Source: a phage. From it: DNA of 64,000 nt. The notes below the pieces were generated by a model, which saw only the letters and a list, made by a program, of their open reading frames with translations, was not told the origin of the DNA and did not search any database. The position numbers and the translations under genes are program-made. Below are positions 4,063 through 19,467 of the stretch, in pieces. The stretch's first letter is position 1. Each line of letters opens with the position of its first letter. The stretch lies in assembly GCA_024672275.1 (NCBI GenBank), contig GCA_024672275.1_4536.1. One strand, 5' to 3'.

Positions 4063-4069
4063 AATCACC

Positions 4070-4378
4070 TCAACAAGTAATTTCAAAAGGTGTATAGGGT
4101 TCCGTATTTCTCATGATCCAAGGACTGCTAGGATTGCTCGGATCATAAGGACCAAAAGGTTTTATGGTAGGTTGTGTTTCTTTCTTCTGAATCTCTTCAA
4201 AAATACGACGAAGTTCAGAATATTCTTGATCCACCATAAGATTCGGTGCATCTGATTCTACAGCTTGCAGGTTATCTTCCTTAAGAACAATCTCACGAAC
4301 AAGATTAACATCTTCTGTTTCTAAGATAACTTCTTTACGGATATTGCCTACACTTTGAATAATTGTAACCTTATACAT
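4070..4378 (-). CDS. hypothetical protein
   Basis: 102-aa ORF. Confidence 0.5.
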   Translation of the reverse strand: MYKVTIIQSVGNIRKEVILETEDVNLVREIVLKEDNLQAVESDAPNLMVDQEYSELRRIFEEIQKKETQPTIKPFGPYDPSNPSSPWIMRNTEPYTPFEITC

Positions 4379-5121
4379 TAATCCTCCTCAAGAGTTGAAT
4401 AAAATTGAAGACCACCGTCCATATCGAAATAAGCAAATGTTAAGTTATTATTGAACACAGATCCAGTATCCATATAAACACGATTCGCATTGATAATAGG
4501 TGTTTTTACATAAGAGTGTCCATGAAACACATAATCCACACCCATCACAACAGGAAGTTTCATTCCCTCTTTAGCACAATCCACCATATCTCTGTCCCAC
4601 ATAAGTGCTTCAGCAAAACGGTTTTCCTGTGTTTTTGTCATCTTCGAAGTGTATTCTGGAATATCTGTTACAGGGAGATATTCCAAAGAAGACGGATACC
4701 CACCATGAATAAACGCAAGTTTCATGCCTCTGTAGTTAACAATGAGAACAACAGGTAAATCTTCTGTCATCATTGCTAAGGCTGTAGCTCCTTCTTCACC
4801 ACATTCTTCAAGGACCGTATATCCTCCATTTTGATACCAACACTCGAAGTAGCTACGATCTCCTTCCAGCATACCTTTAATCATCATGTCTTCATGATTT
4901 CCACGAATAGCGTAGCGATTGTGTTTACGAGTAAATTCTAAAACACAACGAAAGTTTTGCTTTCCACGGTCAGTAAGATCTCCTAAAGATACAACTACAT
5001 CTGTATCTCGGATACCTAACTTTGCCTTTCCTTTTTCATACAAATTATAACAACCGTGTAGATCTCCAATTATAAAAAGATCTTGATCGCTTTTAACAGT
5101 AATTTCTCTGTGTATGATCAC
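4378..5121 (-). CDS. serine/threonine protein phosphatase (PPP family, lambda-phosphatase-like)
   Basis: GDLHG, GDLTDRG and GNHE motifs in canonical order. Confidence 0.8.
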   Translation of the reverse strand: MIIHREITVKSDQDLFIIGDLHGCYNLYEKGKAKLGIRDTDVVVSLGDLTDRGKQNFRCVLEFTRKHNRYAIRGNHEDMMIKGMLEGDRSYFECWYQNGGYTVLEECGEEGATALAMMTEDLPVVLIVNYRGMKLAFIHGGYPSSLEYLPVTDIPEYTSKMTKTQENRFAEALMWDRDMVDCAKEGMKLPVVMGVDYVFHGHSYVKTPIINANRVYMDTGSVFNNNLTFAYFDMDGGLQFYSTLEED

Positions 5122-5447
5122 TTATCCTCCTCAAAATCTAAGAAAATAAAAATATTCACCTTTCCTTCAATCTCTTGTTCTAAAACAAGATCGGCAAATT
5201 CTGCATAAGCTTTCTCTTCAACTTTTTCAATATGTTCTGCGGCATCTTTAAAAGGTGTATCCCCATCCACCTTTACTAATAAGAAAAGAGATCGCATTTC
5301 GACGCTTTTACTGTTACGAGGAAGGAAATCTACAGCTTCAACAATTCTCCAACCCAAATAGCCAGGGGTTTTATGAATCTCCCCTAAATACTTTTCTAAG
5401 ATTTTACGACCCTCGTCGATAAGGGCTTGTTCTGTAGTAATTTCCAT
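5118..5447 (-). CDS. hypothetical protein
   Basis: 109-aa ORF. Confidence 0.5.
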   Translation of the reverse strand: MEITTEQALIDEGRKILEKYLGEIHKTPGYLGWRIVEAVDFLPRNSKSVEMRSLFLLVKVDGDTPFKDAAEHIEKVEEKAYAEFADLVLEQEIEGKVNIFIFLDFEEDK

Positions 5448-5457
5448 TCCTTCCTCC

Positions 5458-6048
5458 TCAAATTATTAACGAAACCGCATGACTAAATCTTGGTTCAGAT
5501 ATAACCTCTGCTACAGTCACATATGTATCGTGCAGCCAAAAAGATTCTACTCTACAAACACAAATACCGTTGATAATGAAATCTACACAGGATTTATTAT
5601 TTTCGCACACTTGTTGACTATAAACAACCCCTAAAGAGTCATAAAGTGATCTCACTGTTGCTACCATCTCATCTGTTTCGTCTTCCTGTGAAACAAAGAA
5701 AACGAATACAGACAAGTTATTAGCGAAAGTATTGCTATTCTCTACTTCAACCGACTTACAAGGTAAAAAGGAGTAATATTTACCGTTAGGTATCAATTTC
5801 GCCTCAACCTGGTTAAGTATGCTTTGAGATGGTTTTGTTACATAAAAAAGATTTTCTGTTGGGTTTTCAACATTGCTCCTTACTATGCAACGAGTGGGGT
5901 TCGAAGGATCAAAAACATGATCGAAATCGACACACACAGGTAAGTTAACAACTTTAAACTTTTTGCTAAGAATGCTTACTGCTGTAAAAATCAAACCAGC
6001 ATTTATTTTGCCAGTGAAAGTTGAACGCATAACTACTCCTCGGATCAT
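5458..6048 (-). CDS. hypothetical protein
   Basis: 196-aa ORF. Confidence 0.5.
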   Translation of the reverse strand: MIRGVVMRSTFTGKINAGLIFTAVSILSKKFKVVNLPVCVDFDHVFDPSNPTRCIVRSNVENPTENLFYVTKPSQSILNQVEAKLIPNGKYYSFLPCKSVEVENSNTFANNLSVFVFFVSQEDETDEMVATVRSLYDSLGVVYSQQVCENNKSCVDFIINGICVCRVESFWLHDTYVTVAEVISEPRFSHAVSLII

Positions 6049-6239
6049 TCTACCAAAGAGAATTCCGCCTCTTCCAGGTAGATTACAGACCTTGTTGCAT
6101 GATATTTAACGCTCCAGAAATTACCTTCGCGCCGTAAAAGTATCTCATTCACATCAAGATTGCTTAGAAAAACCATATAACTTAAAGCTTGTTGACGCGT
6201 TGAGAATTGTTTCTCTAAAAGTTCTTCTCCGCTCTGCAT
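6045..6239 (-). CDS. hypothetical protein
   Basis: 64-aa ORF, coupled to neighbour. Confidence 0.4.
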   Translation of the reverse strand: MQSGEELLEKQFSTRQQALSYMVFLSNLDVNEILLRREGNFWSVKYHATRSVIYLEEAEFSLVE

Positions 6240-6284
6240 AATCCCTCCTTAAAATACTCCCTCCGAAAAGGGAGTATAAGTATA

Positions 6285-6488
6285 TCACGTAGTTGTTATG
6301 TTGTCTTCTTGGATACTAGAATCCACTTCTGCAAACATATCTTCTGCACTGTAATTATTTCCAGTCCAGCGTGATAAAAGGATAGCAGCAATCTCTTTCG
6401 CATGAGATTCGGACTCTGCATAAACGTTAGTCCCAGTGTCACCTTTTTTCTTTTCATGTGCATAAATGCAGTAATAATTGTAAGCCAT
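6285..6488 (-). CDS. hypothetical protein
   Basis: 67-aa ORF. Confidence 0.4.
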   Translation of the reverse strand: MAYNYYCIYAHEKKKGDTGTNVYAESESHAKEIAAILLSRWTGNNYSAEDMFAEVDSSIQEDNITTT

Positions 6489-6724
6489 TAATCTTCCCAG
6501 TCATTGCCCTCGGTAGAGTGAACTAAAGCTCGCACGATACCACCGTAATCTACTGCCTGATTTGCAGCATGTTCGGCATAAACTTCAATGGCTTTTTTGA
6601 AGAAAAGAGCAGTAGCTGCTTCAATATTATCCATTTCGCCATCTACGTCAGTAGAAAGTGAAAGGTTGAGGCTTTCATCTACTTCATCAAAATCAATAGC
6701 CACTGTCATAATTAGTTTACCCAT
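6488..6724 (-). CDS. small acidic protein
   Basis: 78 aa, rich in Asp/Glu. Confidence 0.45.
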   Translation of the reverse strand: MGKLIMTVAIDFDEVDESLNLSLSTDVDGEMDNIEAATALFFKKAIEVYAEHAANQAVDYGGIVRALVHSTEGNDWED

Positions 6725-6736
6725 AGTTCACACTCC

Positions 6737-7246
6737 TTAAACAAAATAAAATGGTTGAGAGAGGCCCAAACGATTCTTTGGGTCGTATACATACCAAGCG
6801 TATGCTGTCTTATCTGTTCCACCTGCAACAAACGAAGGCCGTTCTGAAAGGACTATAAGGTTTGTTGGTGGATTCTTTTGATGGAACTCTCGTCGTTTCT
6901 TTGACTCCAAGAAGCCCAACCGAAGAAGATAAATACAAACATCCGCCTCTTTTAAGCTCTTTTCCAAGAACTCCATTGCTAACTTAAATGGAGGATTTGT
7001 GATTATAATGTCGGGACGATTTTCCCATTCATGACTAAAATAATCTTTACCTTCTTCAAGTTCGCAATATTCTGAACCTTCAGGAAAATGGCGATAAATC
7101 GCTTCAGCTTCACCTCTGCAAGGTTCTGCAAAAACCCAACCTTCTTCCTTTAGATTTTTGAAATCTATAACACTAAACAAACTATTGATTGCTTTTTGCG
7201 GTGTCGGATAATAATCGCTCGTTGGGCGATCATAATCTAATGCCAT
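6737..7246 (-). CDS. phage-type DNA N6-adenine methyltransferase (Dam-like)
   Basis: DYYPTP near N-terminus and DIIITNPPF (NPPF catalytic motif). Confidence 0.55.
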   Translation of the reverse strand: MALDYDRPTSDYYPTPQKAINSLFSVIDFKNLKEEGWVFAEPCRGEAEAIYRHFPEGSEYCELEEGKDYFSHEWENRPDIIITNPPFKLAMEFLEKSLKEADVCIYLLRLGFLESKKRREFHQKNPPTNLIVLSERPSFVAGGTDKTAYAWYVYDPKNRLGLSQPFYFV

Positions 7247-7664
7247 CTAAAATCTCCTCTTTTGTAATATTATCCAACTCTTTAAAGGATGAAATCTCGT
7301 TTAATAATCCTATTTGATCAGCTTCTAGAGGATAAGTGTTTTTATCTGTTTTTCTAGACAGAATATCTTCAACAAACTTATCAATAGCCAAAGAAGAATC
7401 ATAAAATTTTAAAAGTTGGTAATCCATAGGAGATATTTTGTCATCTCTTAGAAATATTTCTAACATGTTTTCAGGAGTGTCATGGTTTAGTTTATGTTCA
7501 CCAAAAATATTAACTTCATAAACATCTTTGCCAAACCAACGTTTCTTCTTTTCAACAGTATAGGTTTTTGCCACCAGACCATCTAAACAGTTTCTTGCCC
7601 TCTTACATGTTTGACGGTAAGAGTGGATAGCGCCTTCAACAAACTTAGCAGGAACTTGTAACAT
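7230..7664 (-). CDS. hypothetical protein
   Basis: 144-aa ORF. Confidence 0.5.
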   Translation of the reverse strand: MLQVPAKFVEGAIHSYRQTCKRARNCLDGLVAKTYTVEKKKRWFGKDVYEVNIFGEHKLNHDTPENMLEIFLRDDKISPMDYQLLKFYDSSLAIDKFVEDILSRKTDKNTYPLEADQIGLLNEISSFKELDNITKEEILDGIRL

Positions 7665-7682
7665 TATTAATCTCCTATGTTT

Positions 7683-7703
7683 AAGAAATGCCCCCGAAGG
7701 GGC
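7683..7703 (-). terminator. intergenic hairpin (gcccc-ttcg-ggggc), possible terminator/attenuator
   Basis: Perfect 5-bp GC stem with tetraloop downstream of HslV-like stop; tail only moderately U-rich. Confidence 0.4.
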
Positions 7704-7709
7704 AGTTTG

Positions 7710-8402
7710 TTAAATAGCGGTTCCTTCGAAATCCGCCACATTTACGAGATTAATATTTTCAGATTTAGAAGTCAAGTTGTTTTCTGCAACAGATTTTTCT
7801 TCAGTATCCGCCTCGTTACCTGCCACGTTACGAGGTTCTTCTTCACCGTAGGGATTACCGAATTTCAAAAGATTGATCAATTCTTCTTTGGAGAAGTTTT
7901 CTAAATCATCATCTGTTAATTCAATAATCTCGTCTTGTTCTTCAATAAATGTTTCACCACCAGAAAAAGCATCTCGCTTTTTAGCTACTTCCATAGCCTG
8001 TTCTGGTGTTGCCCCTGCATCAAGAGCAGCTAAAGCAAAATCTGACCCACTCCCTACTGCATAATATTCTTCATCAATCGGATATGCACGTGTTGGGTTG
8101 TTACCTTCGTGCAGGAAAATACGTCCGTCTGGATGAACAACAAGTGCAATAAACTCTTCATCTTCTTTATCTGGATCAGAGTGAATCATCAAACCAGGGA
8201 CAGCATCACGTGCTGCTTCGCACTGTAGATTTTGTTCAAACCATTGAAAGAAAGAAAGCACGGAGGTCAGACGACCAGCACCACCTACAAGGTAATCTCC
8301 AATTTTTCGGACCTTTTTGAAATTAATAGAATCTACACGTCCACCAAAAGTTACCTTACCGTCACTCAAAATCTTATTTTTGGTTGCAATAATTGTCGTC
8401 AC
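7710..8402 (-). CDS. HslV-like (proteasome beta-type, Ntn-hydrolase) peptidase
   Basis: N-terminal MTTIIA (Thr right after Met), FKKVRKI, VGGAGRLTSVLSF and YAVGSGSDFALAAL match HslV blocks from memory; acidic C-terminal tail. Confidence 0.65.
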   Translation of the reverse strand: MTTIIATKNKILSDGKVTFGGRVDSINFKKVRKIGDYLVGGAGRLTSVLSFFQWFEQNLQCEAARDAVPGLMIHSDPDKEDEEFIALVVHPDGRIFLHEGNNPTRAYPIDEEYYAVGSGSDFALAALDAGATPEQAMEVAKKRDAFSGGETFIEEQDEIIELTDDDLENFSKEELINLLKFGNPYGEEEPRNVAGNEADTEEKSVAENNLTSKSENINLVNVADFEGTAI

Positions 8403-8905
8403 TATTCTTCCTCCTCTGTTAATGTTTTAAGAACCGCTTTCCCGCCATTCACGTATTTGCAGATGTATTCTATCGCACGTAGCGTCTCTTTGTCAACAAA
8501 AATTTGATCAGACGTTGCGAGCGGGTTATTAAGAAGATCACTGCAATCACGAACAAGCAGTGCTTTCTTATTAAACAAATTACTTAAGAACAGTAACTTC
8601 GCCTCTTCTTCTGTTATGTGCAGAAGGCTAGGATCGGAGCCAGCTATTCCTATTATACAATCAAACAAGCTTTCTTTACTATCAGAAAGTTCTTGAAAAT
8701 GGTTTAAAAGCCAATCTTCTCCTAGACACCAACATTTAAACATTTCCAGTTTATCTCGGAGGGTCATATTCTCTAAAGTAAGAGCAATCTCTTTTTCAAT
8801 ATGGTTTACACAAATTTGACGAAATTCGTTAGGTTTTACGAGTCCCGTTTGATAGCACTCATCTATACCGCTTCTTCCGATAGCTATTGTTGCTACACCC
8901 ATCAA
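8402..8905 (-). CDS. hypothetical protein
   Basis: 167-aa ORF, start overlaps HslV-like stop. Confidence 0.5.
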   Translation of the reverse strand: MMGVATIAIGRSGIDECYQTGLVKPNEFRQICVNHIEKEIALTLENMTLRDKLEMFKCWCLGEDWLLNHFQELSDSKESLFDCIIGIAGSDPSLLHITEEEAKLLFLSNLFNKKALLVRDCSDLLNNPLATSDQIFVDKETLRAIEYICKYVNGGKAVLKTLTEEEE

Positions 8906-8937
8906 TCCTCCTTATAAATGGCTTCCCTGCCATGTTA

Positions 8938-9696
8938 TTAAATAAACACTTCAGTAATCAGTTTAGACAAACGTCCACGTTTATTATCGTCCGTTGTCAG
9001 TTCAACGTATCCAATAAAATCTACAATTGGCTCACGAACACCTTCTTCATTTTCTGGATATAAAAGTTCCAAAATTTGATGCAGACCATTGCTACGTTTT
9101 TTAATTGCATATGTCTGGCGAACATCGCCTAATACAATAACATGCGTATTAATACCTGCACGTTCAATAAGAAGTTTAAGTGTTTCTGTTGACATAAGTT
9201 GTGCTTCGTCAATAATGACGATTGTATTATCCAGGGTAGCCCCTAACAAATAGTTAGGAATATTCAATTCGATCTTACCTGATCCAATATCGTTTTCCAA
9301 TTTGTTGGCTGTCATGAATTGCTGGAAAATACGTTTTGTAGATTCATAGTGTGCTGCTAGTTTATCTGTTTTATCCCCCGACAAGAAACCAATCTGATCA
9401 TCTCCGACTTCAGTAGGGTTCTTGATAAAAAGTAGTTTACGGAAGTCTCCTGAACGAAGCATCTGCAAAGCTTTCCATAAAGCAACAGAGGTTTTACCAG
9501 TCCCTGCCGGAGCATTTACAACAGTCAGATCATTCCAAATCATGCTTTGAACAATCTTATTTTGGTCCCCTTCAGGCATAAATTCATCTAAACGGTAATC
9601 GTCATTACCTACCGCTTTTGCTGCATAACGGCTTTCAATCTTTGCTGAATTAGCCAGTTTCTGCCGTTGTGTTTTAGCTGCGGTTTTATTTCCCAT
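8938..9696 (-). CDS. phoH: PhoH-like ATPase
   Basis: Walker A APAGTGKTS; start set to internal ATG (MGNKT) preceded by AAAAGGAG. Confidence 0.85.
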   Translation of the reverse strand: MGNKTAAKTQRQKLANSAKIESRYAAKAVGNDDYRLDEFMPEGDQNKIVQSMIWNDLTVVNAPAGTGKTSVALWKALQMLRSGDFRKLLFIKNPTEVGDDQIGFLSGDKTDKLAAHYESTKRIFQQFMTANKLENDIGSGKIELNIPNYLLGATLDNTIVIIDEAQLMSTETLKLLIERAGINTHVIVLGDVRQTYAIKKRSNGLHQILELLYPENEEGVREPIVDFIGYVELTTDDNKRGRLSKLITEVFI

Positions 9697-9715
9697 AGTA
9701 GCACTCCTTTTAGAA

Positions 9716-9729
9716 GGGGCCGAAGCCCC
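9716..9729. repeat. conserved hairpin element ggggc-cgaa-gcccc (copy 1)
   Basis: Identical 14-nt palindromic hairpin also at 14006-14019; lies between lysozyme stop and PhoH RBS. Confidence 0.6.
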
Positions 9730-9733
9730 TTTA

Positions 9734-10234
9734 TTAGTTGTAAGCATCTAAAGTTCCAGAAGTCAGAACTTTAATTACTCGTTCAGCACGGTTTGGCGTC
9801 TGGCTATACCATCGGCTTTTACGCATGTTTTTACCTGCTTGAGTATAATATGCATTGCTGATTAAAGTCAAGCTATTTTGAAACCCTTCAGCACCTTTTA
9901 ACCCCAACTGGAAAACCATGTTGATTATTCCCAATTTACGAGTATCACTAACCTTATCATAGATTGGTGATAAGATAGTACTGTTTTTTATGTCTCTCTT
10001 CACTTTTGCAACATCATCAGCAAAGATTTGACGGGCTTCTTTTTCTGTGATAACTCCATTAGTCTTACGACCAAGAAGATTATCTAAGATTTGAATAGCC
10101 TTTGCTTTATCTTTTATTTTAGTCAGAAGGTGTCCTATGCCGACTGTCCAATAACCAAGATGGTCTTGATAAACAGTAAGCTTCAGTCCTTCATCGACTC
10201 GTAGCATATCAAACTCATCTACTACTTTAGCCAT
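9734..10234 (-). CDS. endolysin, T4 lysozyme-like (GH24)
   Basis: EGLKLTVYQDHLGYWTVGIGHLL matches catalytic region of T4 lysozyme E. Confidence 0.85.
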   Translation of the reverse strand: MAKVVDEFDMLRVDEGLKLTVYQDHLGYWTVGIGHLLTKIKDKAKAIQILDNLLGRKTNGVITEKEARQIFADDVAKVKRDIKNSTILSPIYDKVSDTRKLGIINMVFQLGLKGAEGFQNSLTLISNAYYTQAGKNMRKSRWYSQTPNRAERVIKVLTSGTLDAYN

Positions 10235-10241
10235 TTACTTC

Positions 10242-10391
10242 CTATTCGTCGTCTCCTACTCCGTGATCCAACTCGTTAAACAACAGATGTTCTGGAGAAG
10301 TTTCACGTTTTGGTTTCGTTTTCTTTATGTTGGACTTCAGCTCATTTGCCAAAGCACGAGAAAAGATCTTACGTTTCTGTTTACTTTTCAT
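10242..10391 (-). CDS. small basic protein (49 aa)
   Basis: Own translation MKSKQKRKIFSRAL...; GGAG RBS; not in supplied ORF track (below size cutoff). Confidence 0.35.
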   Translation of the reverse strand: MKSKQKRKIFSRALANELKSNIKKTKPKRETSPEHLLFNELDHGVGDDE

Positions 10392-10396
10392 AATTG

Positions 10397-10657
10397 TTAC
10401 TCCGCAATTTGAGCCATGAGATCACGCAGTTCGGTAAAACCGCCTACGTATGTTACCTCCCCGTTCACTTCAGACAGAATTTGTGGAAATGTGCGTGGAG
10501 GAACTCCGGTAAGATCAACAACTGTTTTAGTCATTGATTCTAAATCATAGTCTTGATCAAGACTTAAATATTCAAACTGTTTATTGCGCATGGTTAATAG
10601 TTGTTTTGACATTTCGCAAAATTGACAGTTAGGTTTACCAAAAATTACAAATTCCAT
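10397..10657 (-). CDS. glutaredoxin (T4 NrdC-like)
   Basis: CQFC redox motif near N-terminus, about 86 aa, adjacent to RNR genes. Confidence 0.8.
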   Translation of the reverse strand: MEFVIFGKPNCQFCEMSKQLLTMRNKQFEYLSLDQDYDLESMTKTVVDLTGVPPRTFPQILSEVNGEVTYVGGFTELRDLMAQIAE

Positions 10658-11499
10658 TACCTCTCCTTATTAAGTAATACTGCTAAAGACTGTTCAATAC
10701 CTTTATTTAAATCTGATTTTGTAAGATAGTGACTGGTTACTAATTGTGACTTCACCGGACGTGCTGCTGGAGCATTATAGGTTGAAGCTGATACCGCCGA
10801 TATCTTAACAGGTTCTGGCATCTGTGTCAAGATCTTTTCCGCAAACTCCGCCCAAGAAATAAAATGGCTTCCTGCAAAATGGTAAGTCTTAACAGACCTT
10901 GACCAACCTGTTTTTAATACTTCAAAAATAGCTTCTGCTAAATCTGGAGCATATGTTGGACAAGAGAACTGATCAGCAACAATAATAAAATCACGTTGTC
11001 CATCGTTATAGCGAGACAACATCGTTTTTAGAAAGTTATTTCCAAATTCACTATATACCGAGGCTGTTCGAATAATATATGCATTTGGGTTAACTCCTCG
11101 CACCATTTTTTCACCAAGTTCTTTCGTATACCCATAATTGTTTATTGGGTTAGGTGTAGTATCTTCAAAAATAGGATGAGAATAATTAAAAATATAGTCT
11201 GTAGAAATATGCACAAAATCAATTTTAAGTTTGCTGCACACTGCCGCAATATTCGCAGGTCCATAAGCATTAACAGCCAAAGCAGTAGCAAAATCATGTT
11301 CTGCTTTATCTACAGCCGTATAAGCGGCGCAATTAATAACACCATCTACATAATCTTCAATAATAGCGTTTCGCACAGCTTCAAAATTTGTAATATCTAC
11401 ACGTTCTTTAGGATAAATTAAAGATACATTTGAAGGAGCCACTTTACGTAAAGCTTGTCCCAGTTGTCCATTACCACCCAATACCAGATATGTTAGCAT
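10657..11499 (-). CDS. rmlD: dTDP-4-dehydrorhamnose reductase (RmlD-like)
   Basis: GGNGQLG Rossmann motif, NCAAYTAVDKAE, STDYIF, YGYTK. Confidence 0.85.
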   Translation of the reverse strand: MLTYLVLGGNGQLGQALRKVAPSNVSLIYPKERVDITNFEAVRNAIIEDYVDGVINCAAYTAVDKAEHDFATALAVNAYGPANIAAVCSKLKIDFVHISTDYIFNYSHPIFEDTTPNPINNYGYTKELGEKMVRGVNPNAYIIRTASVYSEFGNNFLKTMLSRYNDGQRDFIIVADQFSCPTYAPDLAEAIFEVLKTGWSRSVKTYHFAGSHFISWAEFAEKILTQMPEPVKISAVSASTYNAPAARPVKSQLVTSHYLTKSDLNKGIEQSLAVLLNKER

Positions 11500-12059
11500 A
11501 CACCCTCACTACGCAACTGTTGAAAAGATTTAGCCATTGCATCTTTTGTTGATAAGATAGGTTTAAAACCTTCGTCAAAAATCATATCGAAGCCCCAATC
11601 GATCCCTATGTCAGGATCATCCCAACGTAAACTTTGTTCGCTAGAAGGGTCGTATGGAGTTGTGCATTTGTATTCAAAGATAGCGTCCATACTCAAAACT
11701 ATAAAACCATGTGCCAAACCAGGGGGAAGCCAAAACTGCGTATGGTGTCGTGCACGAAGAACAACACCGTCCCAAGCACCGTAAGTTGGACTATCTTTAC
11801 GTAAATCTACAGCGAAATCCAATACTTCTCCACTTACACAACGAACAAGCTTACCTTGCGGGTTATTTGTTTGAAAGTGCATTCCTCGCAAAACACCGAA
11901 GTTTGATTTAGACATATTGTCTTGAACGAAAGTTTGTTTACCAATGATATCTTCGTATTTTTGTTCATTGTATGTTTCTAAAAAGAAACCACGATCATCT
12001 TTATAAACGTCTGGTTTGATAATTACCGCACCTTCAATTTTTGTTTTTTCTACTTTCAT
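11493..12059 (-). CDS. rmlC: dTDP-4-dehydrorhamnose 3,5-epimerase (RmlC-like cupin)
   Basis: DDRGFF, LRGMHFQ, GKLVRCVSGEVLDFAVDLR signature. Confidence 0.85.
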   Translation of the reverse strand: MKVEKTKIEGAVIIKPDVYKDDRGFFLETYNEQKYEDIIGKQTFVQDNMSKSNFGVLRGMHFQTNNPQGKLVRCVSGEVLDFAVDLRKDSPTYGAWDGVVLRARHHTQFWLPPGLAHGFIVLSMDAIFEYKCTTPYDPSSEQSLRWDDPDIGIDWGFDMIFDEGFKPILSTKDAMAKSFQQLRSEGVC

Positions 12060-12068
12060 TTTCTCTCC

Positions 12069-12395
12069 TTACCAGACATGTTGAGAAATAATAGTTTCCG
12101 TTTTAATGTTATATTTTTCAAGTAGCTCTACATAGGCTTCTTTTGCATTCTCATTTACTTGCTCAAGATCTACAGCTACGCTTCCTTCTCCGCCTTCTAA
12201 ATAAATACCATATATGCAATAAGACTCATCAGCATCGTAGAAAGGAGAGATGCGACTTAAGTCAAGACCTTCTTGTAAGAACCAGTTAAAATCTCCATCA
12301 AATTCTTCTTCAATTCTAGGATCTTCTCCTACAACCTCTTCCCACTTATTAAAAGGTGCACCCTGTAACATACGCCATTCGATATCAATACCCAT
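12069..12395 (-). CDS. hypothetical acidic protein
   Basis: 108-aa ORF. Confidence 0.5.
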   Translation of the reverse strand: MGIDIEWRMLQGAPFNKWEEVVGEDPRIEEEFDGDFNWFLQEGLDLSRISPFYDADESYCIYGIYLEGGEGSVAVDLEQVNENAKEAYVELLEKYNIKTETIISQHVW

Positions 12396-12546
12396 TTTTC
12401 ATCTCCTCCTCTTCTTGAGCAGCTTTAATAATTGCTTCATAAATATCGTAAGCAATGCCTCCACAACATCTAGCTTCGAAAGCTATTGCTTCTGCAATAT
12501 GATCTGTTAATTCTCGTGGAATTCGGACATACTCTTTTTCACTCTC
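12385..12546 (-). CDS. small hypothetical protein (about 53 aa)
   Basis: Own translation MESEKEYVRIPREL...; GGAGG RBS; overlaps next gene start; not in track. Confidence 0.3.
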   Translation of the reverse strand, partial: ESEKEYVRIPRELTDHIAEAIAFEARCCGGIAYDIYEAIIKAAQEEEEMKNGY

Positions 12547-12691
12547 CATCTTCTACCTCCAACCCTTCTTTTTCAAAGACTACTACTCGTCCTTCACCAT
12601 GACAATTCAGGCAAGGAAATGTTACCATAATTTCCACTTCCATCTGTCCAGTCCCACCACACACAGGACAAAAAATAAGTTTTTCAGCCAT
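12470..12691 (-). CDS. small zinc-finger protein with two CxxCxGxG repeats
   Basis: Own translation MAEKLIFCPVCGGTGQMEV...FPCLNCHGEG; start overlaps upstream stop (TAATG); not in track; 3' end overlaps the MESEKEY ORF. Confidence 0.35.
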
Positions 12692-12900
12692 TATTCCTCC
12701 TTAATTATTTCAAACTTGGCAACACCATTTACAATAATATGACCACAAGACATAACTCCTAGCCAAGGATCGCCGTTTTTCTTCAGGCGTTTACCGAATA
12801 CATCACAAAAACCATTCTTCATTTCGGAGGCTTCATAAGAAGCCCCTTTGTCAAAAACGTCTTTGAATGTGTCGATTATACCAACACATCTCAAAATCAT
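12691..12900 (-). CDS. hypothetical protein
   Basis: 69-aa ORF. Confidence 0.45.
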   Translation of the reverse strand: MILRCVGIIDTFKDVFDKGASYEASEMKNGFCDVFGKRLKKNGDPWLGVMSCGHIIVNGVAKFEIIKEE

Positions 12901-13985
12901 TAGAAGTCAAGCTCCTCATCATCAGAGAGATCTTTGTTAGCTGAATTCAATTTGTAATTAGTTAACTGAATCTCTTGGGCTGCTGACTGAATCAAATCAG
13001 GATTCAACCATTTTTCCATCCAAGCTAAAGGACTATGTTTAGGTGCTTTAAACTTAGCTTTCATTTTCAATCGACGATAAATAGGAGCAGCATTGAAATA
13101 AACCCACTGTTTAGACAATTCAGCGTTAAGACCTACAATAAAACGACCTTCACTAAACAGGTAGTCACACCACTGTTCCTCTTGTTCAACAACAGTGTCG
13201 AGGATCAAAGTCAACTCTTCAATATTGTCTTCGTAAATTTTACGCCAAATTGGGTCATGCAGCAATGCATCAATTACAGCATAATCCATCTTAACATGCA
13301 AGATTTCATCTAGCATAATTTTCTGGATCAGTTTACAAGCCCCAACAAACAGTTGTTGTTCTGCCATAGCAAAAGTAGCAGAGAAGGAAGATATAAACTG
13401 AATACCTTCTAATCCAATCAGGGCTACCATCCCTTTAAGAATCAGCAGTCGAAGTTCATCGTTAGCTTCAATCAATCCTAGAGCATACTTATGACCAGCT
13501 TCTTCCAACTGACCCATGATATCAGCAATGATACCCATACGATTGAAAATTTTATCATTAATCATAATCTGATTGATGACTTCAATTGGATCTGGAGTAC
13601 ATTGACGGATTATTTCAGAATACGTTAACGCATGGAGAACTTCCATTTCACTCTGCTTCATCATCATAGCACAGGCTTCATTGTTACTCAAGAATGGAGA
13701 GAACAAAGTGATGATTGATTTTGCAAGAGAATCATTTTCCCATTGGAACGATAAGTTTTTAATCATAACATCATAGTTGTTTTTAGAACAAGCTACGAAA
13801 TCTTTACGTGTCTGATCCAGATTAACTTCGTTTTCATCCCAATCTTGTGCTTTTTGAAGTTTGTAGAGTTTGTGCATTTCTGGATAAGTTACGTTAACAG
13901 AATCAAAGATCCCTAATTGTTCCCCTAAAAATACTGGATATTTTCCTGTTTTGTAAACTTCGTTATGTAAATTAATTGCTGCCAT
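12900..13985 (-). CDS. nrdB: ribonucleotide reductase class Ia small subunit
   Basis: 361 aa; ferritin-like EVLHALTYSEII region; adjacent to large subunit. Confidence 0.85.
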   Translation of the reverse strand: MAAINLHNEVYKTGKYPVFLGEQLGIFDSVNVTYPEMHKLYKLQKAQDWDENEVNLDQTRKDFVACSKNNYDVMIKNLSFQWENDSLAKSIITLFSPFLSNNEACAMMMKQSEMEVLHALTYSEIIRQCTPDPIEVINQIMINDKIFNRMGIIADIMGQLEEAGHKYALGLIEANDELRLLILKGMVALIGLEGIQFISSFSATFAMAEQQLFVGACKLIQKIMLDEILHVKMDYAVIDALLHDPIWRKIYEDNIEELTLILDTVVEQEEQWCDYLFSEGRFIVGLNAELSKQWVYFNAAPIYRRLKMKAKFKAPKHSPLAWMEKWLNPDLIQSAAQEIQLTNYKLNSANKDLSDDEELDF

Positions 13986-14001
13986 TTAAATCCTCCTCAA
14001 T

Positions 14002-14019
14002 AAAAGGGGCCGAAGCCCC
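14002..14019 (-). terminator. hairpin ggggc-ttcg-gcccc + U-run between nrdA and nrdB (copy 2 of conserved element)
   Basis: Minus-strand hairpin followed by ttttatt; likely partial terminator. Confidence 0.55.
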
Positions 14020-14051
14020 TTTACGTTTACCCTTCTTCACCTGTTCTCCTA

Positions 14052-16295
14052 CTACATTTTACAGGCACTACACCCTTCGTCTTCAGAATCTTCTTGTGCT
14101 AAAGAGTCTGCTGATTTTGTTCTACTATTAAGGTAATACAATGACTTGCCACCCAATCTGGCAAAATTCAGAATAAACTGCATCTCAGCTTTCACTGATA
14201 AACGTCCACCTACCAATTTAGAATAATCTAGCCAAGAATCACAAGAAATTCCTTGGTCCGTGAATTTGGTAAAGATACCATACATTTCTGCAAGATCTTT
14301 AGCCGGAGTATCCCAGGCGGATTGGTAGAACATTTTCAGTTTTTCGTAGTCTGGAACAATAAATAATACACTACCTTTCTGACTTTGTTTATACATGATA
14401 GTATCACGAACAGGATACAGAGAGTTAGTAGTATTGCTTACCAAACTGCTGGACTCATTAGGTGCAATAGCAGCCAAAACACTGTTACGGATACCACCTT
14501 GTTCAATGATTTCAGCACGTAAGCCTTCCCAGTCCATTTTAAGATCGAAATTACCGATACTATCTACTGTTTTAGCATAAGTATCAATTGGTAGCCAACC
14601 TTGAGGCCATTTGGTCTTATCGATCCACTCCGCATTACCTTTTTCCTTAGCCAGGCGCAGAGAGGCTTTTGCCAACCAAAAGTAATGACGTTCTGCAAGT
14701 TCATGCATTAATTTTTTAGCATAAGCATCTGAATAATTTACAAAATTACTTGCCAAGTAATGCGCTAAGTTTGTAATGCCTACACCAATAGATCTACGTG
14801 CTTTAGCAGTTATTTCGTTATGTTTAAATGGATAATCCATTGTTTCAATAACGTTGTCAATTGTCAATACAGCGTAGTATGCAACATCTTCATATTCTTC
14901 AGGTAATACACGACCAGCAACAATAGAAGATAAGAAACATAAAGCCAATTCTTGATCTTCAGTATTCTCACCAGTAAAGAGATCCGGCATATTGTGGAAA
15001 GCTTTAGTCGGTAAGAAAATCTCTTGACACAGATTTGATTGATACACCGTATCCAGGAAAGGTGTATGGTTGTTAACGTTGTCAGCAAAGAACATGTAAA
15101 TACGTCCTGTTTCTGCACGTTGAACAATAATCTCTGTCAGAAGATCACGAGCCTTAACAAATTTTTTCTTAATGCGACGACGGCTTACTTTGTCATAAAC
15201 TGCATCAAACTCTTCTTCACTTTTATACAAAGCTTCATAAAGTTCAGGAGCATCATCACAACTAACTAACATCCAATCTTCGTTTTTTGCTGCTCGACGC
15301 AAGAATGAACGGTTAACAACAATAGAATAATCCAGTTTGTCTACTCGTTTATCTATAGGTGTTGTTGGATTCTTCAGTCGAATCAGATCATCAAAGTCTG
15401 GTTCAAGTATGGTGAAGGTAACTGTAGCACTACCTCCACGGCTTGCTTGCTTCGAAGCTCCAACACTATCTTCCATCCATTTCAGATACGGAAGAAGACC
15501 ACCATGAATAATACGATTATTCTTAACACCTTGACCTGTGGCACGAGTTTGAAGATTAACACCAATACCTGCGTTATTCAACGTATACTCATGAGCTAAG
15601 TAGTTAGCAATGGCTAAAGACTCTGCCGTATCGTCTGCACGGAATAAACAACAAGACGCACTTCCTTTGATTGGAGTTCGTAGAGTTGTCAGATACGGCG
15701 ATGGCAGATTAATCTTAAGATCGCTAACATAAGTATAAAGTTTTTTAATATCTTCTATACGGCGTTCTTTTGGTTGGATCTCCATAACCTTCATTGCGAT
15801 ACCAATGAAAAGAAACTGTGGAGACTCATGCACAACATCGTTTACTGCATCTCGAATAAGATATTTATCTACCATCTGACGTAAAACAGAATAACCATAA
15901 GTTAGATTTTTATTATGCTTTACAATCTTACCGATTTCTTTGATCTCTTCATCAGTATAATCCATTTTAGCCCAATGTCCACGTTCTACCATATCATGAT
16001 AAAAGGTATTCAGTGAAGGGATACTGTGGTATCCCCCATGAGCCTGTTTGTAAATCATACCCAGAAGAAGTCTTCCTGCCATATCACTGTAAGCTTGTGT
16101 TTTCTTGTCAATACACGCTGCAATCATTGCTTTATGCAGATCACGTGTAGACACACCGTCATAACACCGCTTCACAGCTTCTAATTCAATTTCAGACCAG
16201 TTTAGTTTACCTGCTGCAAATTCAGACCACTTGCGAAGTTTTTCTGGATTAAACTCCTCTGTCTTACCGTTAGATTTAGTTACAAAACGAATCAA
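14052..16295 (-). CDS. nrdA: ribonucleotide reductase class Ia large subunit
   Basis: 747 aa; NLCQEIFLP active-site region, C-terminal CSACKM tail. Confidence 0.9.
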   Translation of the reverse strand: MIRFVTKSNGKTEEFNPEKLRKWSEFAAGKLNWSEIELEAVKRCYDGVSTRDLHKAMIAACIDKKTQAYSDMAGRLLLGMIYKQAHGGYHSIPSLNTFYHDMVERGHWAKMDYTDEEIKEIGKIVKHNKNLTYGYSVLRQMVDKYLIRDAVNDVVHESPQFLFIGIAMKVMEIQPKERRIEDIKKLYTYVSDLKINLPSPYLTTLRTPIKGSASCCLFRADDTAESLAIANYLAHEYTLNNAGIGVNLQTRATGQGVKNNRIIHGGLLPYLKWMEDSVGASKQASRGGSATVTFTILEPDFDDLIRLKNPTTPIDKRVDKLDYSIVVNRSFLRRAAKNEDWMLVSCDDAPELYEALYKSEEEFDAVYDKVSRRRIKKKFVKARDLLTEIIVQRAETGRIYMFFADNVNNHTPFLDTVYQSNLCQEIFLPTKAFHNMPDLFTGENTEDQELALCFLSSIVAGRVLPEEYEDVAYYAVLTIDNVIETMDYPFKHNEITAKARRSIGVGITNLAHYLASNFVNYSDAYAKKLMHELAERHYFWLAKASLRLAKEKGNAEWIDKTKWPQGWLPIDTYAKTVDSIGNFDLKMDWEGLRAEIIEQGGIRNSVLAAIAPNESSSLVSNTTNSLYPVRDTIMYKQSQKGSVLFIVPDYEKLKMFYQSAWDTPAKDLAEMYGIFTKFTDQGISCDSWLDYSKLVGGRLSVKAEMQFILNFARLGGKSLYYLNSRTKSADSLAQEDSEDEGCSACKM

Positions 16296-16311
16296 CTTCT
16301 CCTCCCTATTA

Positions 16312-16566
16312 TTAATGCATATTCAAAACATCTACATCATAACCGAACTTCATTTCATTAAAAAGTCCATTAGCATATAGAAAACCTTCAAAATGAGTTA
16401 TGTCATCAAACCCTTTTGCTTTTGCTCGACGATCTGCTTCTTGTCTTTTAGGAGATAAACGTTTTGAAGTGTCTAGAATTACAGTTACATTACAACCAAC
16501 AGTTTCATCAAAATAGACTTCGATTTCACAGCCTTCATATTTATTATCAGTCATTGTCCCTCTCAT
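16312..16566 (-). CDS. hypothetical protein
   Basis: 84-aa ORF. Confidence 0.5.
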   Translation of the reverse strand: MRGTMTDNKYEGCEIEVYFDETVGCNVTVILDTSKRLSPKRQEADRRAKAKGFDDITHFEGFLYANGLFNEMKFGYDVDVLNMH

Positions 16567-16973
16567 TGATTAGTATCATCTGCTTTCGCAGGATCATAAG
16601 AGTTACCGAAATCATCCATCTTAATATGTGACGCACCCCAACCTGTAAATTCTTCATCACCAAAATGAAAAATATCATTTTCTTGGTAGATTCGTTTAAA
16701 ACCACAATTAGGTGAAACAGGGAAAGTGAAAAGCGTTGTATTTGCAAACACTACTCGCTTATCGTTATTGCTTCGGATATTCACATTACGCTCAACAGAA
16801 TAGTGTGAATCTTCAGCCATACCCAGCATTACAAGCGACGCTCTAATAACAGCATTTTGTTTCTCGTGTGGGATATTACCATTGTGTTTATTTGATTCTA
16901 GTTTCCAGATAGGGGTAGACATTACAGTAGACATGCTTACGGTAGCCCAAGTTGTAGTATTTACTAATGACAT
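16563..16973 (-). CDS. hypothetical protein
   Basis: Start set to ATG (MSLVN) after GAAGGAG RBS. Confidence 0.5.
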   Translation of the reverse strand: MSLVNTTTWATVSMSTVMSTPIWKLESNKHNGNIPHEKQNAVIRASLVMLGMAEDSHYSVERNVNIRSNNDKRVVFANTTLFTFPVSPNCGFKRIYQENDIFHFGDEEFTGWGASHIKMDDFGNSYDPAKADDTNQ

Positions 16974-17027
16974 ATTTTCTCCTTCATTTTGAATGGGAGG
17001 ACTCACCTCCTCCCAGTATTGTGCTAT

Positions 17028-17055
17028 ATTATACTAAAACTAATACTAAAGTCAA
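17028..17055 (-). promoter_or_regulatory. sigma70 consensus-like promoter (TTGACT-16-TATAAT) followed by 7-bp leader hairpin
   Basis: Minus strand ttgact ttagtattagttttag tataat, then gggagga-ggtgag-tcctccc, then RBS. Confidence 0.55.
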
Positions 17056-17071
17056 TAACTATTTAAACAGA

Positions 17072-18070
17072 TCACCATTTAGTATGATTTGTTAAAAGTT
17101 GACGATGTTGAATCCAGCCTTTGAAATTGCCAGACCAAAACTTACCATTACGATCTACATGGGTAATACCTGGTTCCCAAGAGTTAGAATCCCAAGGAGC
17201 ATTGATAAACAAATCTTCAAAACAGTTCTCTCCATATTGTTCGCATGTTTCTTGCATTGGAGTGGCTTGATGTTCAAACGGAGAAGCATGAACCTTGCGC
17301 CCAGTCAGCAAACGACCATAGATATCTAAAGCTTTATCTTTAGTTGCATTTAAACGACGATAGCTAACCTGTGCACAACACGAAGCTGAAATAGCTTTGG
17401 CTTCTTCCAAAGTAAGCACAACAACTTCTCCAGATTCATCTTGAACGTAGTATCCACCAAAAACAAAATGATCGTCACCTTCTGTGCCAATATTATCATA
17501 GAAATGGTCTACATAAGGTGTGTGCCATTGCCCTGGTTTCAGCACTTCTGGTGTAGATTCTTCATACTCTTTGTGCATCTCTTTAGCCAAAGCTTCGATA
17601 GTAGGATCGGCTTCTTTGTCATCACGTAGCCACCAGAAATTTTCATATTCTGTTGCTGTCAGAACTGTTTTAATTCGTTGGAAAGGTTCCAGAAGACGGT
17701 TTGCAACTTGTTTGTGGTACCCTGCCAAAGAGAATTCTTCTGCAAAACGTGCTGCACTAAGCGCGGCAAGATCCCACCACTCTTGAGCAGTATAACCTGC
17801 ATCAATAAGAGCGTCATGATCAACACCTTTATCCTGCATACCAGGTTGGTTAGCCCCAAAACGATAAGGACGAGCAGGTTGATTTCGCACCATTTCAATC
17901 AGTGTTTTAACAGGTATAGCACGGCTAGAAGCAGCATTACGACTGAACAGGCGGTGAGTCATCAATTCTGAATGAATAATACGTGGATATTCTAGTTCAA
18001 AAGTTACAATCTCTTTTCCGTCTTCAGTGATGGAATGCGCAATAATACTAGCCGAAATCTGTTTTGTCAT
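17072..18070 (-). CDS. ThyX-like protein (flavin-dependent thymidylate synthase family), divergent
   Basis: THRLFSRNAASSRA resembles RHRx7S ThyX signature; HASPFEH near C-terminus resembles ThyX HxxPFEH but in unusual order; 332 aa is long for ThyX. Confidence 0.45.
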   Translation of the reverse strand: MTKQISASIIAHSITEDGKEIVTFELEYPRIIHSELMTHRLFSRNAASSRAIPVKTLIEMVRNQPARPYRFGANQPGMQDKGVDHDALIDAGYTAQEWWDLAALSAARFAEEFSLAGYHKQVANRLLEPFQRIKTVLTATEYENFWWLRDDKEADPTIEALAKEMHKEYEESTPEVLKPGQWHTPYVDHFYDNIGTEGDDHFVFGGYYVQDESGEVVVLTLEEAKAISASCCAQVSYRRLNATKDKALDIYGRLLTGRKVHASPFEHQATPMQETCEQYGENCFEDLFINAPWDSNSWEPGITHVDRNGKFWSGNFKGWIQHRQLLTNHTKW

Positions 18071-18079
18071 TTTTTCTCC

Positions 18080-18688
18080 TTAGTTTTTAAAATTGTTCAA
18101 AGTGTTAAAAACATCCAAACATGTTAGCCACTGATCTTCTAAACTTGTGATCACAACATTTGGTTTTTTCTTTAGTTCTTCTAGATGGTTATCTTTATAA
18201 GGCGTATTAAAATATATTTTAACCACTTCATCTGGAAAATATAGTAGGTTATCAGCCCTGTCATCTATTGCTATGTCACAAGGCAATAAGTATTTTTCTT
18301 TCGTAGCAAAAAAGCCGTTGCCAGATCCTTTGCTAAAATCAATCGTATCTAATGTTCTTAAAACATGCTTATGTTTAGAACTTAAGTGACCACCTTTTGT
18401 CACACTTGCGATCAAAAGATTGCTACCTTTTCTTGAAACATACTTTAAGAAATCTGGCATACCTGTAACAAAACCCATCGTATCATAGAGATGAGGATTA
18501 TCCAGAAATCCGTAAGGATCTATGTTGAACTCTTCCCTGAAACCAGGAAAATAGTTGGTAAGATCGTAATCTGCATTTTTTGTGAATGTGTCGATTTTAA
18601 CACCAAGGCCACTAATCTTATTCAACCATTCTAACCAAGCAACATCTAACGGAGCCACAACTAAATCCCAATCACATACTATCTGCAT
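18080..18688 (-). CDS. hypothetical protein (possible HAD-like hydrolase)
   Basis: 202-aa ORF; N-terminal VCDWDLV weakly resembles HAD motif I. Confidence 0.45.
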   Translation of the reverse strand: MQIVCDWDLVVAPLDVAWLEWLNKISGLGVKIDTFTKNADYDLTNYFPGFREEFNIDPYGFLDNPHLYDTMGFVTGMPDFLKYVSRKGSNLLIASVTKGGHLSSKHKHVLRTLDTIDFSKGSGNGFFATKEKYLLPCDIAIDDRADNLLYFPDEVVKIYFNTPYKDNHLEELKKKPNVVITSLEDQWLTCLDVFNTLNNFKN

Positions 18689-18724
18689 AAAACCTCCTCT
18701 CTCTTTTAGTATAGTTATCTTATA

Positions 18725-19300: not shown

Positions 19301-19349
19301 TATTGCTCACCTTTTTAGCTGTATATTCCCCTGGTGGGATATTGTGTTT

Positions 19350-19379: not shown

Positions 19380-19467
19380 GCACATTGTTTCTGGAATAGT
19401 CAAAGTTAGTAAAAGTTTATCACCTTTTCGGTTGAATATTTTATAAACTTCTCCTGCTCCATATTGT

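Follow-up and report, generated by a model that had tools for sequence, protein, structure and literature searches.

A remnant rmlC-rmlD pair in a Phapecoctavirus genome, the probable outcome of rmlB-rmlA deletion, and its possible role in phage-directed glycosylation

The window analysed here, a stretch of 64,000 nucleotides, derives from the genome of a Phapecoctavirus, a phAPEC8-like coliphage, and contains rmlC and rmlD near genes for ribonucleotide reductase and glutaredoxin. The pair is very probably what remains of an rmlB-rmlA-rmlC-rmlD operon, and the absence of rmlA and rmlB is the product of a recent deletion. From the gene sequences we lean slightly towards an explanation in which this remnant pair would act on a substrate made by the host and serve a cassette of phage glycosyltransferases. 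The rml genes, their odd placement and the variant without rmlA and rmlB are already published, and are annotated in many public genomes. The relevant features of the window are:

10397..10657, minus strand: glutaredoxin gene (grx), from PF00462 (E 1.8e-9)
10657..11499, minus strand: rmlD, predicted dTDP-4-dehydrorhamnose reductase, 280 aa, from TIGR01214, PF04321, motif and triad
11493..12059, minus strand: rmlC, predicted dTDP-4-dehydrorhamnose 3,5-epimerase, 188 aa, from TIGR01221, PF00908 and catalytic residues
12060..12075, minus strand: deletion junction and Shine-Dalgarno site of rmlC, with GGAGA at 12064-12068
12069..12395, minus strand: open reading frame for a 108-aa protein of phrog_15453, without assigned function
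12900-13985, minus strand: nrdB, in the upstream part (12900..16295) of the rml/grx minus-strand block
14052-16295, minus strand: nrdA, in the same upstream part

The genes are compactly organized, with the start of rmlD overlapping the end of rmlC by 7 nt, and with the rmlD stop codon and the glutaredoxin ATG sharing one base (junction sequence TAATG). The initial annotation had placed the pair between glutaredoxin and nrdB; glutaredoxin does adjoin rmlD, but nrdB is not adjacent, the gap between it and rmlC being filled by four small open reading frames (12069-12900). Promoter- and terminator-like sites in 8800-16600 are no commoner than in shuffled sequence, and we claim no internal regulatory signal.

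We are confident that RmlC and RmlD, judged from their genes, are genuine and intact enzymes. RmlC scores 225.3 bits against the equivalog TIGR01221 (cut-off 155.75), with residues 2-181 of 188 covered, and matches PF00908 with an E of 7.8e-67. Its residues H61, K70, Y130 and D173 align with H63, K73, Y133 and D170 of Salmonella RmlC (PDB 1dzr), which we take to be the catalytic His, Lys, Tyr and Asp of the S. enterica enzyme. The mono-epimerase relatives NovW and EvaD give scores far below those of RmlC, and it is a putative double epimerase, acting at C3 and C5 of dTDP-4-keto-6-deoxy-D-glucose. RmlD exceeds the TIGR01214 equivalog cut-off by a narrow margin (238.5 bits against 224.05), matches PF04321 (E 2.6e-73), and retains the NAD(P)H-binding G8xxG11xxG14 motif and the catalytic T100/Y122/K126 (aligned with 3sc6 and 1vl0); it is not of the enterobacterial type, scoring 118 bits against NF007440, where the cut-off is 308. 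We infer L-rhamnose as the product, and since the score lies only narrowly above the cut-off, 6-deoxy-L-talose is a possible product as well. The initial annotation had recognized both homologues at 10657-12059, and these coordinates are exact.

It had also reported neither RmlA nor RmlB, and we agree: no homologue of either is present in the 64-kb window, and a wider search, which it had recommended, finds none elsewhere in the complete genome of the near-identical relative anhysbys, whose deletion junction is the same. The rmlA and rmlB genes of a self-sufficient dTDP-L-rhamnose pathway (rmlBACD, of the phAPEC8/phi92 type) are thus missing from the window. Phage phi92 has rmlB-rmlA-rmlC-rmlD-grx in the same slot (62% identity to the window for RmlC and 54% for RmlD), and the insertion of rmlBACD between nrdB and grx dates to the Stephanstirmvirinae ancestor. 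Among 64 Phapecoctavirus records, 41 have the full operon, about 22 have the deletion seen in the window, and one has a different partial deletion; this survey covers GenBank phage records, an RmlC search of IMG/VR having given two loci, too few for the purpose.

Alignment of the window to the rmlB and rmlC starts of phage tuntematon locates the junction, with 1,876 bp (rmlB-rmlA) missing, and the deletion ran between the Shine-Dalgarno sequences of rmlB and rmlC, with GGAGA (12064-12068) as the microhomology. The junction is identical in all seven deletion genomes sampled, and the phrog_15453 reading frame, which lies upstream of rmlB in full-operon phages, now adjoins rmlC. Because the deletion is a clean one between GGAGA ribosome-binding sites, rmlC should still be transcribed and translated. 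Phage DIJ07P2 has an independent deletion in which rmlB codons 1-305 are fused to the rmlA tail, with rmlC and rmlD intact, and KKP 3954 has a frameshift in the rmlB/rmlA region, a possible third loss; rmlB and rmlA have therefore suffered loss or damage on at least two occasions, and perhaps on three.

Such repeated loss or damage (the common deletion, DIJ07P2 and possibly KKP 3954) is what might be expected if rmlC and rmlD were decaying leftovers, functionless since the loss of rmlA and rmlB and merely not deleted yet, but we consider this extremely improbable. The missing steps are available from the host, as described below, and rmlC and rmlD are under purifying selection: all 15 sampled genomes have both intact, every deletion genome has both at full length, and pN/pS is 0.02 for rmlC and 0.13 for rmlD across the sampled genomes, and 0.02 and 0.16, respectively, within the deletion genomes. 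Codon variants private to the deletion genomes comprise 22 synonymous and 8 non-synonymous changes, where the neutral expectation is about 75% non-synonymous (P = 4e-8). A single clade of deletion genomes would place this selection after the deletion, but the rmlCD tree does not recover them as monophyletic; the argument therefore rests on the private variants and the intact reading frames, and part of the diversity taken as constraint may predate the deletion.

The substrate of RmlC and RmlD probably comes from the host. When complete E. coli genomes are searched with the phage rmlBA DNA, every one of the 5,426 yields an rffG and rfbA/rffH pair, with a median of one locus each, so the host is able to supply the substrate. 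Nothing in these genomes matches the phage rmlCD DNA, and the share of hosts with their own rfbC and rfbD is not measurable in this way. We propose that host dTDP-4-keto-6-deoxy-D-glucose, made by RffH and RffG for enterobacterial common antigen, would be the input, and that RmlC and RmlD would convert it to dTDP-L-rhamnose, a donor not made by all hosts. With the substrate available in every E. coli and dTDP-L-rhamnose only in some hosts, rmlA and rmlB would be dispensable, and rmlC and rmlD would not.

The same two reactions could instead manipulate the host pool, with RmlC and RmlD diverting dTDP-4-keto-6-deoxyglucose from common-antigen or O-antigen synthesis, and accumulated dTDP-L-rhamnose inhibiting RmlA/RffH so that dTTP is spared for replication. 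It is established biochemistry that dTDP-L-rhamnose feedback-inhibits RmlA, no glycosyltransferase is required, and the gene layout suggests co-transcription of rmlC and rmlD with the ribonucleotide reductase and glutaredoxin genes and, further upstream, ThyX. We nonetheless regard this role as very unlikely, as it explains neither the dTTP-consuming rmlA and rmlB of the ancestor and most relatives nor the near-identical phage distribution of RmlC and a set of glycosyltransferase genes.

This glycosyltransferase cassette is the likeliest consumer of phage-made dTDP-L-rhamnose, and we judge the link to be a little better than even. The initial annotation had proposed a genome-wide search for glycosyltransferases, which was well founded: four adjacent genes lie outside the window in relatives such as anhysbys, at 10294-13438 of that genome, about 75 kb from rmlCD and beside primase/helicase and DNA polymerase genes. 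Two of the cassette proteins, GT1 and GT3, are present in the same approximately 107 Escherichia phage records as RmlC, deletion genomes included, and a distant phage contig of 135 kb has the gene for an RmlB-like NDP-hexose 4,6-dehydratase immediately next to the cassette. The cassette, which may be mobile, is also found in the head-gene modules of two smaller phages: in a Serratia prophage it is flanked by the lysis genes and the terminase, and in a 46-kb phage by the terminase and portal genes. In the stretches retrieved around the cassette in these two there are no rml genes, and the cassette therefore need not use rhamnose.

None of the four glycosyltransferases has an above-threshold family in Pfam or NCBIfam, and no transmembrane segments are predicted in them. 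GT3, the third cassette gene, has weak, sub-threshold matches to TAGT (PF20691; 19.3 bits, cut-off 27.5, E 1e-3) and to phrog_842, a beta-glucosyl-HMC-alpha-glucosyltransferase (E 6e-6 over 40 residues), both confined to the nucleotide-sugar-binding DXD region; Foldseek comparison of its AlphaFold model (pLDDT 89) with the PDB gives generic GT-A neighbours, the best being STIV A197 with a TM of 0.40. The GT1 model (pLDDT 93) has a GT4-like GT-B fold, and the 50 PDB neighbours listed are GT4-family enzymes, with no T4 alpha- or beta-glucosyltransferase among them. GT4-like enzymes are retaining, whereas the rhamnosyltransferases known to us are inverting, and therefore at most the cassette genes GT3 or GT4 would code for a rhamnosyltransferase. 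More tentatively, dTDP-L-rhamnose would feed these four soluble enzymes, which would build up a short glycan on an acceptor in the cytoplasm. The GT1 and GT3 fold searches do not identify that acceptor, and our guesses rank a phage (virion) protein first, a host envelope precursor second, and DNA as least likely.

The initial annotation had leaned on the position of the rml genes among nucleotide-metabolism genes to suggest a nucleotide-related role such as DNA hypermodification, in which a modified base of the phage DNA would be glycosylated with dTDP-L-rhamnose as donor; a DNA-modification role is also already in print, having been proposed earlier by Olsen et al. 2020 (PMC7552041). The placement of the cassette beside primase/helicase and DNA polymerase genes and the GT3 matches to PF20691 and phrog_842 are consistent with this, and there is some likeness to the glucosyl-hydroxymethylcytosine DNA of T-even phages, which also have glycosyltransferases near replication and nucleotide genes and whose T2/T6 PHROG is the one weakly matched by GT3. 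Several features make this decidedly unlikely. The slot is inherited, rmlBACD being there in phi92 and in most Phapecoctavirus genomes, so placement does not sustain the suggestion. The sister phi92-like phages have rmlBACD complete as well as the cassette, and in published tests prove 'exceptionally susceptible' to restriction-modification systems (PMC8594841); they are also restricted by Druantia III and ARMADA II, two systems that the authors of that work think act on unmodified DNA (PMC13463889), these tests being on phi92-like phages and not on Phapecoctavirus. The complete anhysbys genome is annotated with ThyX and several DNA methyltransferases but, at this level of annotation only, with no hydroxymethylase or TET/JBP protein, and the donor would be a dTDP sugar and not the UDP-glucose of T-even phages. 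The GT3 matches fall below the family cut-offs and within the DXD region, four glycosyltransferases exceed the need of known DNA sugar modifications, and neither the cassette folds (with T4 glucosyltransferases absent from the 50 GT1 neighbours listed) nor its neighbourhoods, including the head modules of the two smaller phages, point to DNA. Rhamnosylated DNA would represent a novel type of DNA modification, but is unlikely on current evidence.

Remodelling of the host envelope, an option that the initial annotation had named too, is unlikely, though less so. Here the enzymes would modify intermediates of LPS core, O-antigen or common antigen at the inner membrane face, and the benefit would be a superinfection block or progeny kept off debris. 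Phages of this kind bind surface glycans and LPS core (PMC8594841; PMC11990801), GT4-family folds like that of GT1 include enzymes of lipid-linked or cell-wall glycans (PglA, PimA, TarM), and host export machinery could complete the process. Against this, we see neither a flippase or polymerase nor any glycosyltransferase with a membrane anchor, the cassette proteins being without predicted transmembrane segments, and in the two smaller phages the cassette sits within head and packaging modules. We know of no virulent coliphage that remodels the host envelope in this manner.

Taken together, the restriction sensitivity of the sister phages, the head-module cassettes and the GT4-like fold mildly favour a protein or virion glycan. 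That the acceptor is a virion protein is a tentative proposal, as is its general form, that Stephanstirmvirinae coliphages may put a rhamnose-containing oligosaccharide on their own virion proteins by means of three to four glycosyltransferases encoded in a mobile cassette that also occurs in unrelated smaller phages, with the donor secured by at least RmlC and RmlD. Capsid, decoration and tail proteins have no Ser/Thr-rich C-terminal tails, which were sought as a glycosylation signature. A virion glycan, if confirmed, would be unprecedented among the virions of well-studied coliphages and would bear on immune recognition in phage therapy.

Virion glycosylation is described for cluster F mycobacteriophages such as Che8 (Freeman et al. 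2023, as cited in PMC11256854). These also have soluble phage glycosyltransferases outside a polysaccharide locus, and GT3 is 24-28% identical to those of cluster F over about 57% of the GT3 length (E about 1e-7), but this homology is weak and restricted to the GT-A core, and in the Stephanstirmvirinae the virion glycan is putative. To our knowledge, cluster F mycobacteriophages do not encode their own nucleotide-sugar pathway. Chloroviruses and mimivirus make capsid or fibril glycans from virus-encoded 6-deoxyhexose pathways and glycosyltransferases, and are similar in that the virus itself brings the route to a 6-deoxyhexose nucleotide sugar together with several cytoplasmic glycosyltransferases; they differ in their eukaryotic hosts and UDP- or GDP-linked routes, and the likeness is not one of sequence. 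The bacterial RmlABCD systems (rfb/rml operons) are closer, with RmlC and RmlD being clear equivalogs and the ancestral phage operon having all four genes, but the window, from a virulent phage, retains the last two steps only, between ribonucleotide reductase and glutaredoxin genes and not in a polysaccharide cluster, with a non-enterobacterial RmlD and rmlCD DNA unmatched in E. coli genomes.

The region is 98-99% identical in phAPEC8, ESCO37, anhysbys and other published Phapecoctavirus genomes, with the same gene annotation, and ESCO37 and anhysbys have the same arrangement without rmlA and rmlB; there is no material difference, and the window represents another member of the group. Phages similar to phAPEC8 and phi92 are isolated widely and are therapy candidates, and glycosylated virions or altered infected-cell surfaces, if real, would have consequences for antibody recognition, for host range and for how phage cocktails are designed. 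We note that the natural variants, with the full operon, the clean rmlBA deletion and one independent deletion, make the question of rhamnose experimentally easy.

The window belongs to a phAPEC8-like myovirus of the genus Phapecoctavirus, subfamily Stephanstirmvirinae. Positions 9000–14000 match over 60 GenBank phage records at 98.5–99.3% identity, and the complete genome of Escherichia phage anhysbys is collinear with the window at 97–99% identity. The genes rmlC and rmlD, coding for dTDP-4-dehydrorhamnose 3,5-epimerase and reductase, lie in a minus-strand block, listed here in order of transcription:

14052–16295, minus strand, nrdA
12900–13985, minus strand, nrdB
12069–12900, minus strand, four small ORFs
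11493–12059, minus strand, rmlC
10657–11499, minus strand, rmlD
10397–10657, minus strand, glutaredoxin
downstream of glutaredoxin, minus strand, a 49-aa ORF, then lysozyme, then phoH

Adjoining genes overlap or almost abut (rmlC and rmlD by 7 nt, with one base common to the rmlD stop and the glutaredoxin ATG), and promoter-like and terminator-like sites in the rml gene block are in no excess over shuffled sequence, an arrangement consistent with a putative single long transcription unit. Upstream of the rml genes, a 108-aa protein (12069–12395, minus strand; phrog_15453) has two alleles, 62% identical, which differ although their genomes are otherwise 97–99% identical. A 50-aa ORF (12539–12691, minus strand) contains two CxxCxGxG motifs, with weak, sub-threshold matches to the DnaJ zinc-finger and Anti-TRAP families, and its phi92 counterpart is annotated 'putative DnaJ chaperone'.

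The initial annotation placed rmlC and rmlD at 10657–12059, and this is borne out. RmlC scores 225.3 bits on equivalog TIGR01221 (cut-off 155.75) and RmlD 238.5 bits on TIGR01214 (cut-off 224.05). Residues H61, K70, Y130, and D173 of RmlC align with the catalytic H63, K73, Y133, and D170 of the Salmonella enzyme, and RmlD retains glycines for dinucleotide binding together with a T100/Y122/K126 triad. Both predicted enzymes are ordinary by every testable feature and can be securely assigned by sequence as real RmlC and RmlD, with the reservation that, because RmlD passes its cut-off narrowly, its product could be a related sugar such as 6-deoxy-L-talose. RmlD differs from the enterobacterial type (118 bits on NF007440, cut-off 308), its closest solved-structure relatives are from Bacillus and Clostridium, and none of 5,426 E. 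coli genomes contains a match to the phage rmlCD DNA; together, the non-enterobacterial RmlD and the lack of an E. coli match show that the genes were not recently captured from the host.

As first noted, rmlA and rmlB are absent from the 64-kb window, and neither is present elsewhere in the complete anhysbys genome, such that the phage falls short of a self-sufficient dTDP-L-rhamnose pathway. In phAPEC8, tuntematon, ESCO5, and others, rmlB-rmlA-rmlC-rmlD-grx is found at exactly the same site, as is the full operon of phi92, a phage of the sister genus Justusliebigvirus that has diverged from the window to only 62% identity in RmlC and 54% in RmlD. This shared location in diverged genomes indicates that the four-gene operon was present in the ancestor of the subfamily, the two-gene state being derived. 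Alignment of the window to two sites in tuntematon shows that the sequence upstream of rmlB joins the rmlC start across a common GGAGA, the ribosome-binding site of both genes, with removal of 1,876 bp; the junction is identical in all seven rmlA/B-less genomes sampled. A set of 64 Phapecoctavirus records (≥95% identity, GenBank/RefSeq duplicates included) comprises 41 with the full operon and about 22 with the window's deletion. The remaining one, DIJ07P2, has a different deletion, with rmlB codon 305 joined out of frame to the last 53 rmlA codons.

Two further genomes vary in this region. In KKP 3954 (OR067838.1, 3045–4039) a 2-nt length difference splits rmlB into two ORFs, reflecting either a sequencing error or a third case in which the rmlBA half was inactivated. 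The phiWec186 operon (LC739535.1, 1583–4858) is mosaic, and because RmlB and RmlA are 94–97% identical to those of tuntematon and RmlC and RmlD only 65%, a recombination breakpoint must fall between rmlA and rmlC, at the boundary where the deletion also occurred.

The missing steps are probably supplied by the host. Every one of 5,426 complete E. coli genomes contains an adjacent rffG and rfbA/rffH pair that matches the phage rmlB-rmlA DNA (median, one locus per genome); this is the locus for enterobacterial common antigen. RffH and RffG produce dTDP-4-keto-6-deoxy-D-glucose, and reportedly (Marolda and Valvano, 1995) can replace RfbA and RfbB; from the ubiquity of this pair we infer that every E. 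coli host provides the RmlC substrate. Host RmlC and RmlD are encoded in O-antigen clusters and present in only some strains, which the median of one locus fits. A host supplying the rmlB/A steps universally and the rmlC/D steps only in some strains would explain why rmlB/A has been lost repeatedly and rmlC/D retained.

Both retained genes are full length in 15 of 15 genomes examined, with pairwise pN/pS of 0.02 for rmlC and 0.13 for rmlD (0.023 and 0.16 within the deletion genomes alone). On the rmlCD tree the deletion genomes are not monophyletic, which shows that recombination moved the deletion between backgrounds and that some rmlCD diversity may be older than the deletion. Codon variants private to deletion genomes include 22 synonymous and eight non-synonymous changes, the latter all in rmlD, as compared with a neutral expectation of about three quarters non-synonymous (P = 4e-8). 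From the intact frames, low pN/pS, and synonymous-rich private variants, we conclude that rmlC and rmlD are still under constraint.

A search beyond the window for glycosyltransferases, proposed in the initial annotation, revealed four adjacent annotated genes at 10294–13438 in anhysbys, between the primase/helicase and SleB-like hydrolase genes and about 75 kb from rmlCD. Numbered by rising coordinate, they code for GT1 (314 aa) and its 41%-identical paralogue GT2 (315 aa), for GT3 (227 aa), in which an FDDD motif is invariant, and for GT4 (187 aa), for which Pfam gives no match; Pfam matches to the set are sub-threshold at best, and all four fall in clear PHROG glycosyltransferase families. 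RmlC, GT1, and GT3 are each matched by 106–107 Escherichia phage records, with the deletion genomes SF1-1, Mt1B1_P17, and ECML-183-2 within these sets, and in a distant 135-kb phage contig (GT3 44% identical) an RmlB-like NDP-hexose 4,6-dehydratase directly adjoins the cassette. The matching record sets and the adjoining dehydratase link the cassette circumstantially to a 6-deoxyhexose donor. Tellurite-resistance-type genes (TerC, TelA, vWA-TerF-like, TerD, and Band_7) and the SleB-like hydrolase also directly adjoin the cassette, at about 14140–22561 in anhysbys and at 1201–8941 and 471–7429 in the records L022 and L024, all outside the window; distant relatives share this arrangement.

That ESCO37 lacks rmlA/B was pointed out in 2023 (PMC10269720), and the rml arrangement is already known from this well-sampled genus. 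Added here are the direction and mechanism of rmlB-rmlA loss, a second, independent loss (DIJ07P2), evidence for lasting constraint on rmlC/D, a host-complementation rationale for the tolerated loss, and the link to a mobile glycosyltransferase cassette with its head-module context elsewhere. The main appeal lies in the question of what these phages glycosylate.

The initial annotation leaned towards a nucleotide-related role, in which the sugar would be placed on phage DNA. Within its sugar-nucleotide-binding region alone, GT3 weakly matches the TET-associated glycosyltransferase and the T2/T6 beta-glucosyl-HMC-alpha-glucosyltransferase families, but this role is not supported by the relatives' restriction sensitivity, the annotation, or the predicted GT1 fold. 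Maffei et al. (PMC8594841) describe Vequintavirinae and related phages, the full-operon phi92-like ones among them, as 'exceptionally susceptible' to restriction-modification systems 'despite a putative dTDP glycosylation machinery', and the Stephanstirmvirinae phages Bas61 and Bas62 are restricted by Druantia III and ARMADA II, thought by the authors to act on unmodified DNA (PMC13463889). At the annotation level anhysbys has ThyX and several DNA methyltransferases and no hydroxymethylase. The GT1 model has a predicted GT4-like fold with structural neighbours including PglA, MshA, BshA, GtfC, Gtf3, SdgB, TarM, and PimA, and T4 DNA glucosyltransferase is absent among the 50 matches listed.

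A virion or other protein is a candidate acceptor. GT4-GT3-GT1 are found in the same order (37–41% identity) in a Serratia prophage, flanked by the lysis genes and the terminase, and in a 46-kb phage the terminase and portal genes flank a GT1-GT3 pair, head-module locations that argue for such a target. So, tentatively, does the distant similarity of GT3 to glycosyltransferases of cluster F mycobacteriophages, for which capsid glycosylation is reported (PMC11256854), as do the several GT1 neighbours that glycosylate proteins and the lack of predicted membrane segments in the glycosyltransferases. Against a virion target, the capsid proteins have no Ser/Thr-rich tail and there is no published glycan for these virions. 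The host envelope, for example LPS core or lipid-linked intermediates, is also a possible target; GT4-like enzymes often use such substrates, and these phages recognise surface glycans.

Elsewhere in the window, a 230-aa protein (7710–8402, minus strand), annotated in relatives as 'peptidase HslV family', opens with a proteasome/HslV-like region at its N-terminus (PF00227, E 1e-5) and then runs into an acidic tail. Ten tRNA genes, two of them tRNA-Met, are clustered at 33957–35879 (plus strand), just past a switch in GC skew and gene orientation at about 32 kb. Records labelled as Campylobacter phages B15, A145, and C3, Acinetobacter phage vB_AbaM_ABPW7, Klebsiella phage ZCKP1, and Pseudomonas phage PsgM04F match Phapecoctavirus or Justusliebigvirus genomes of E. 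coli phages at 89–99% identity, reflecting either an unusually wide host range or unreliable host labels.
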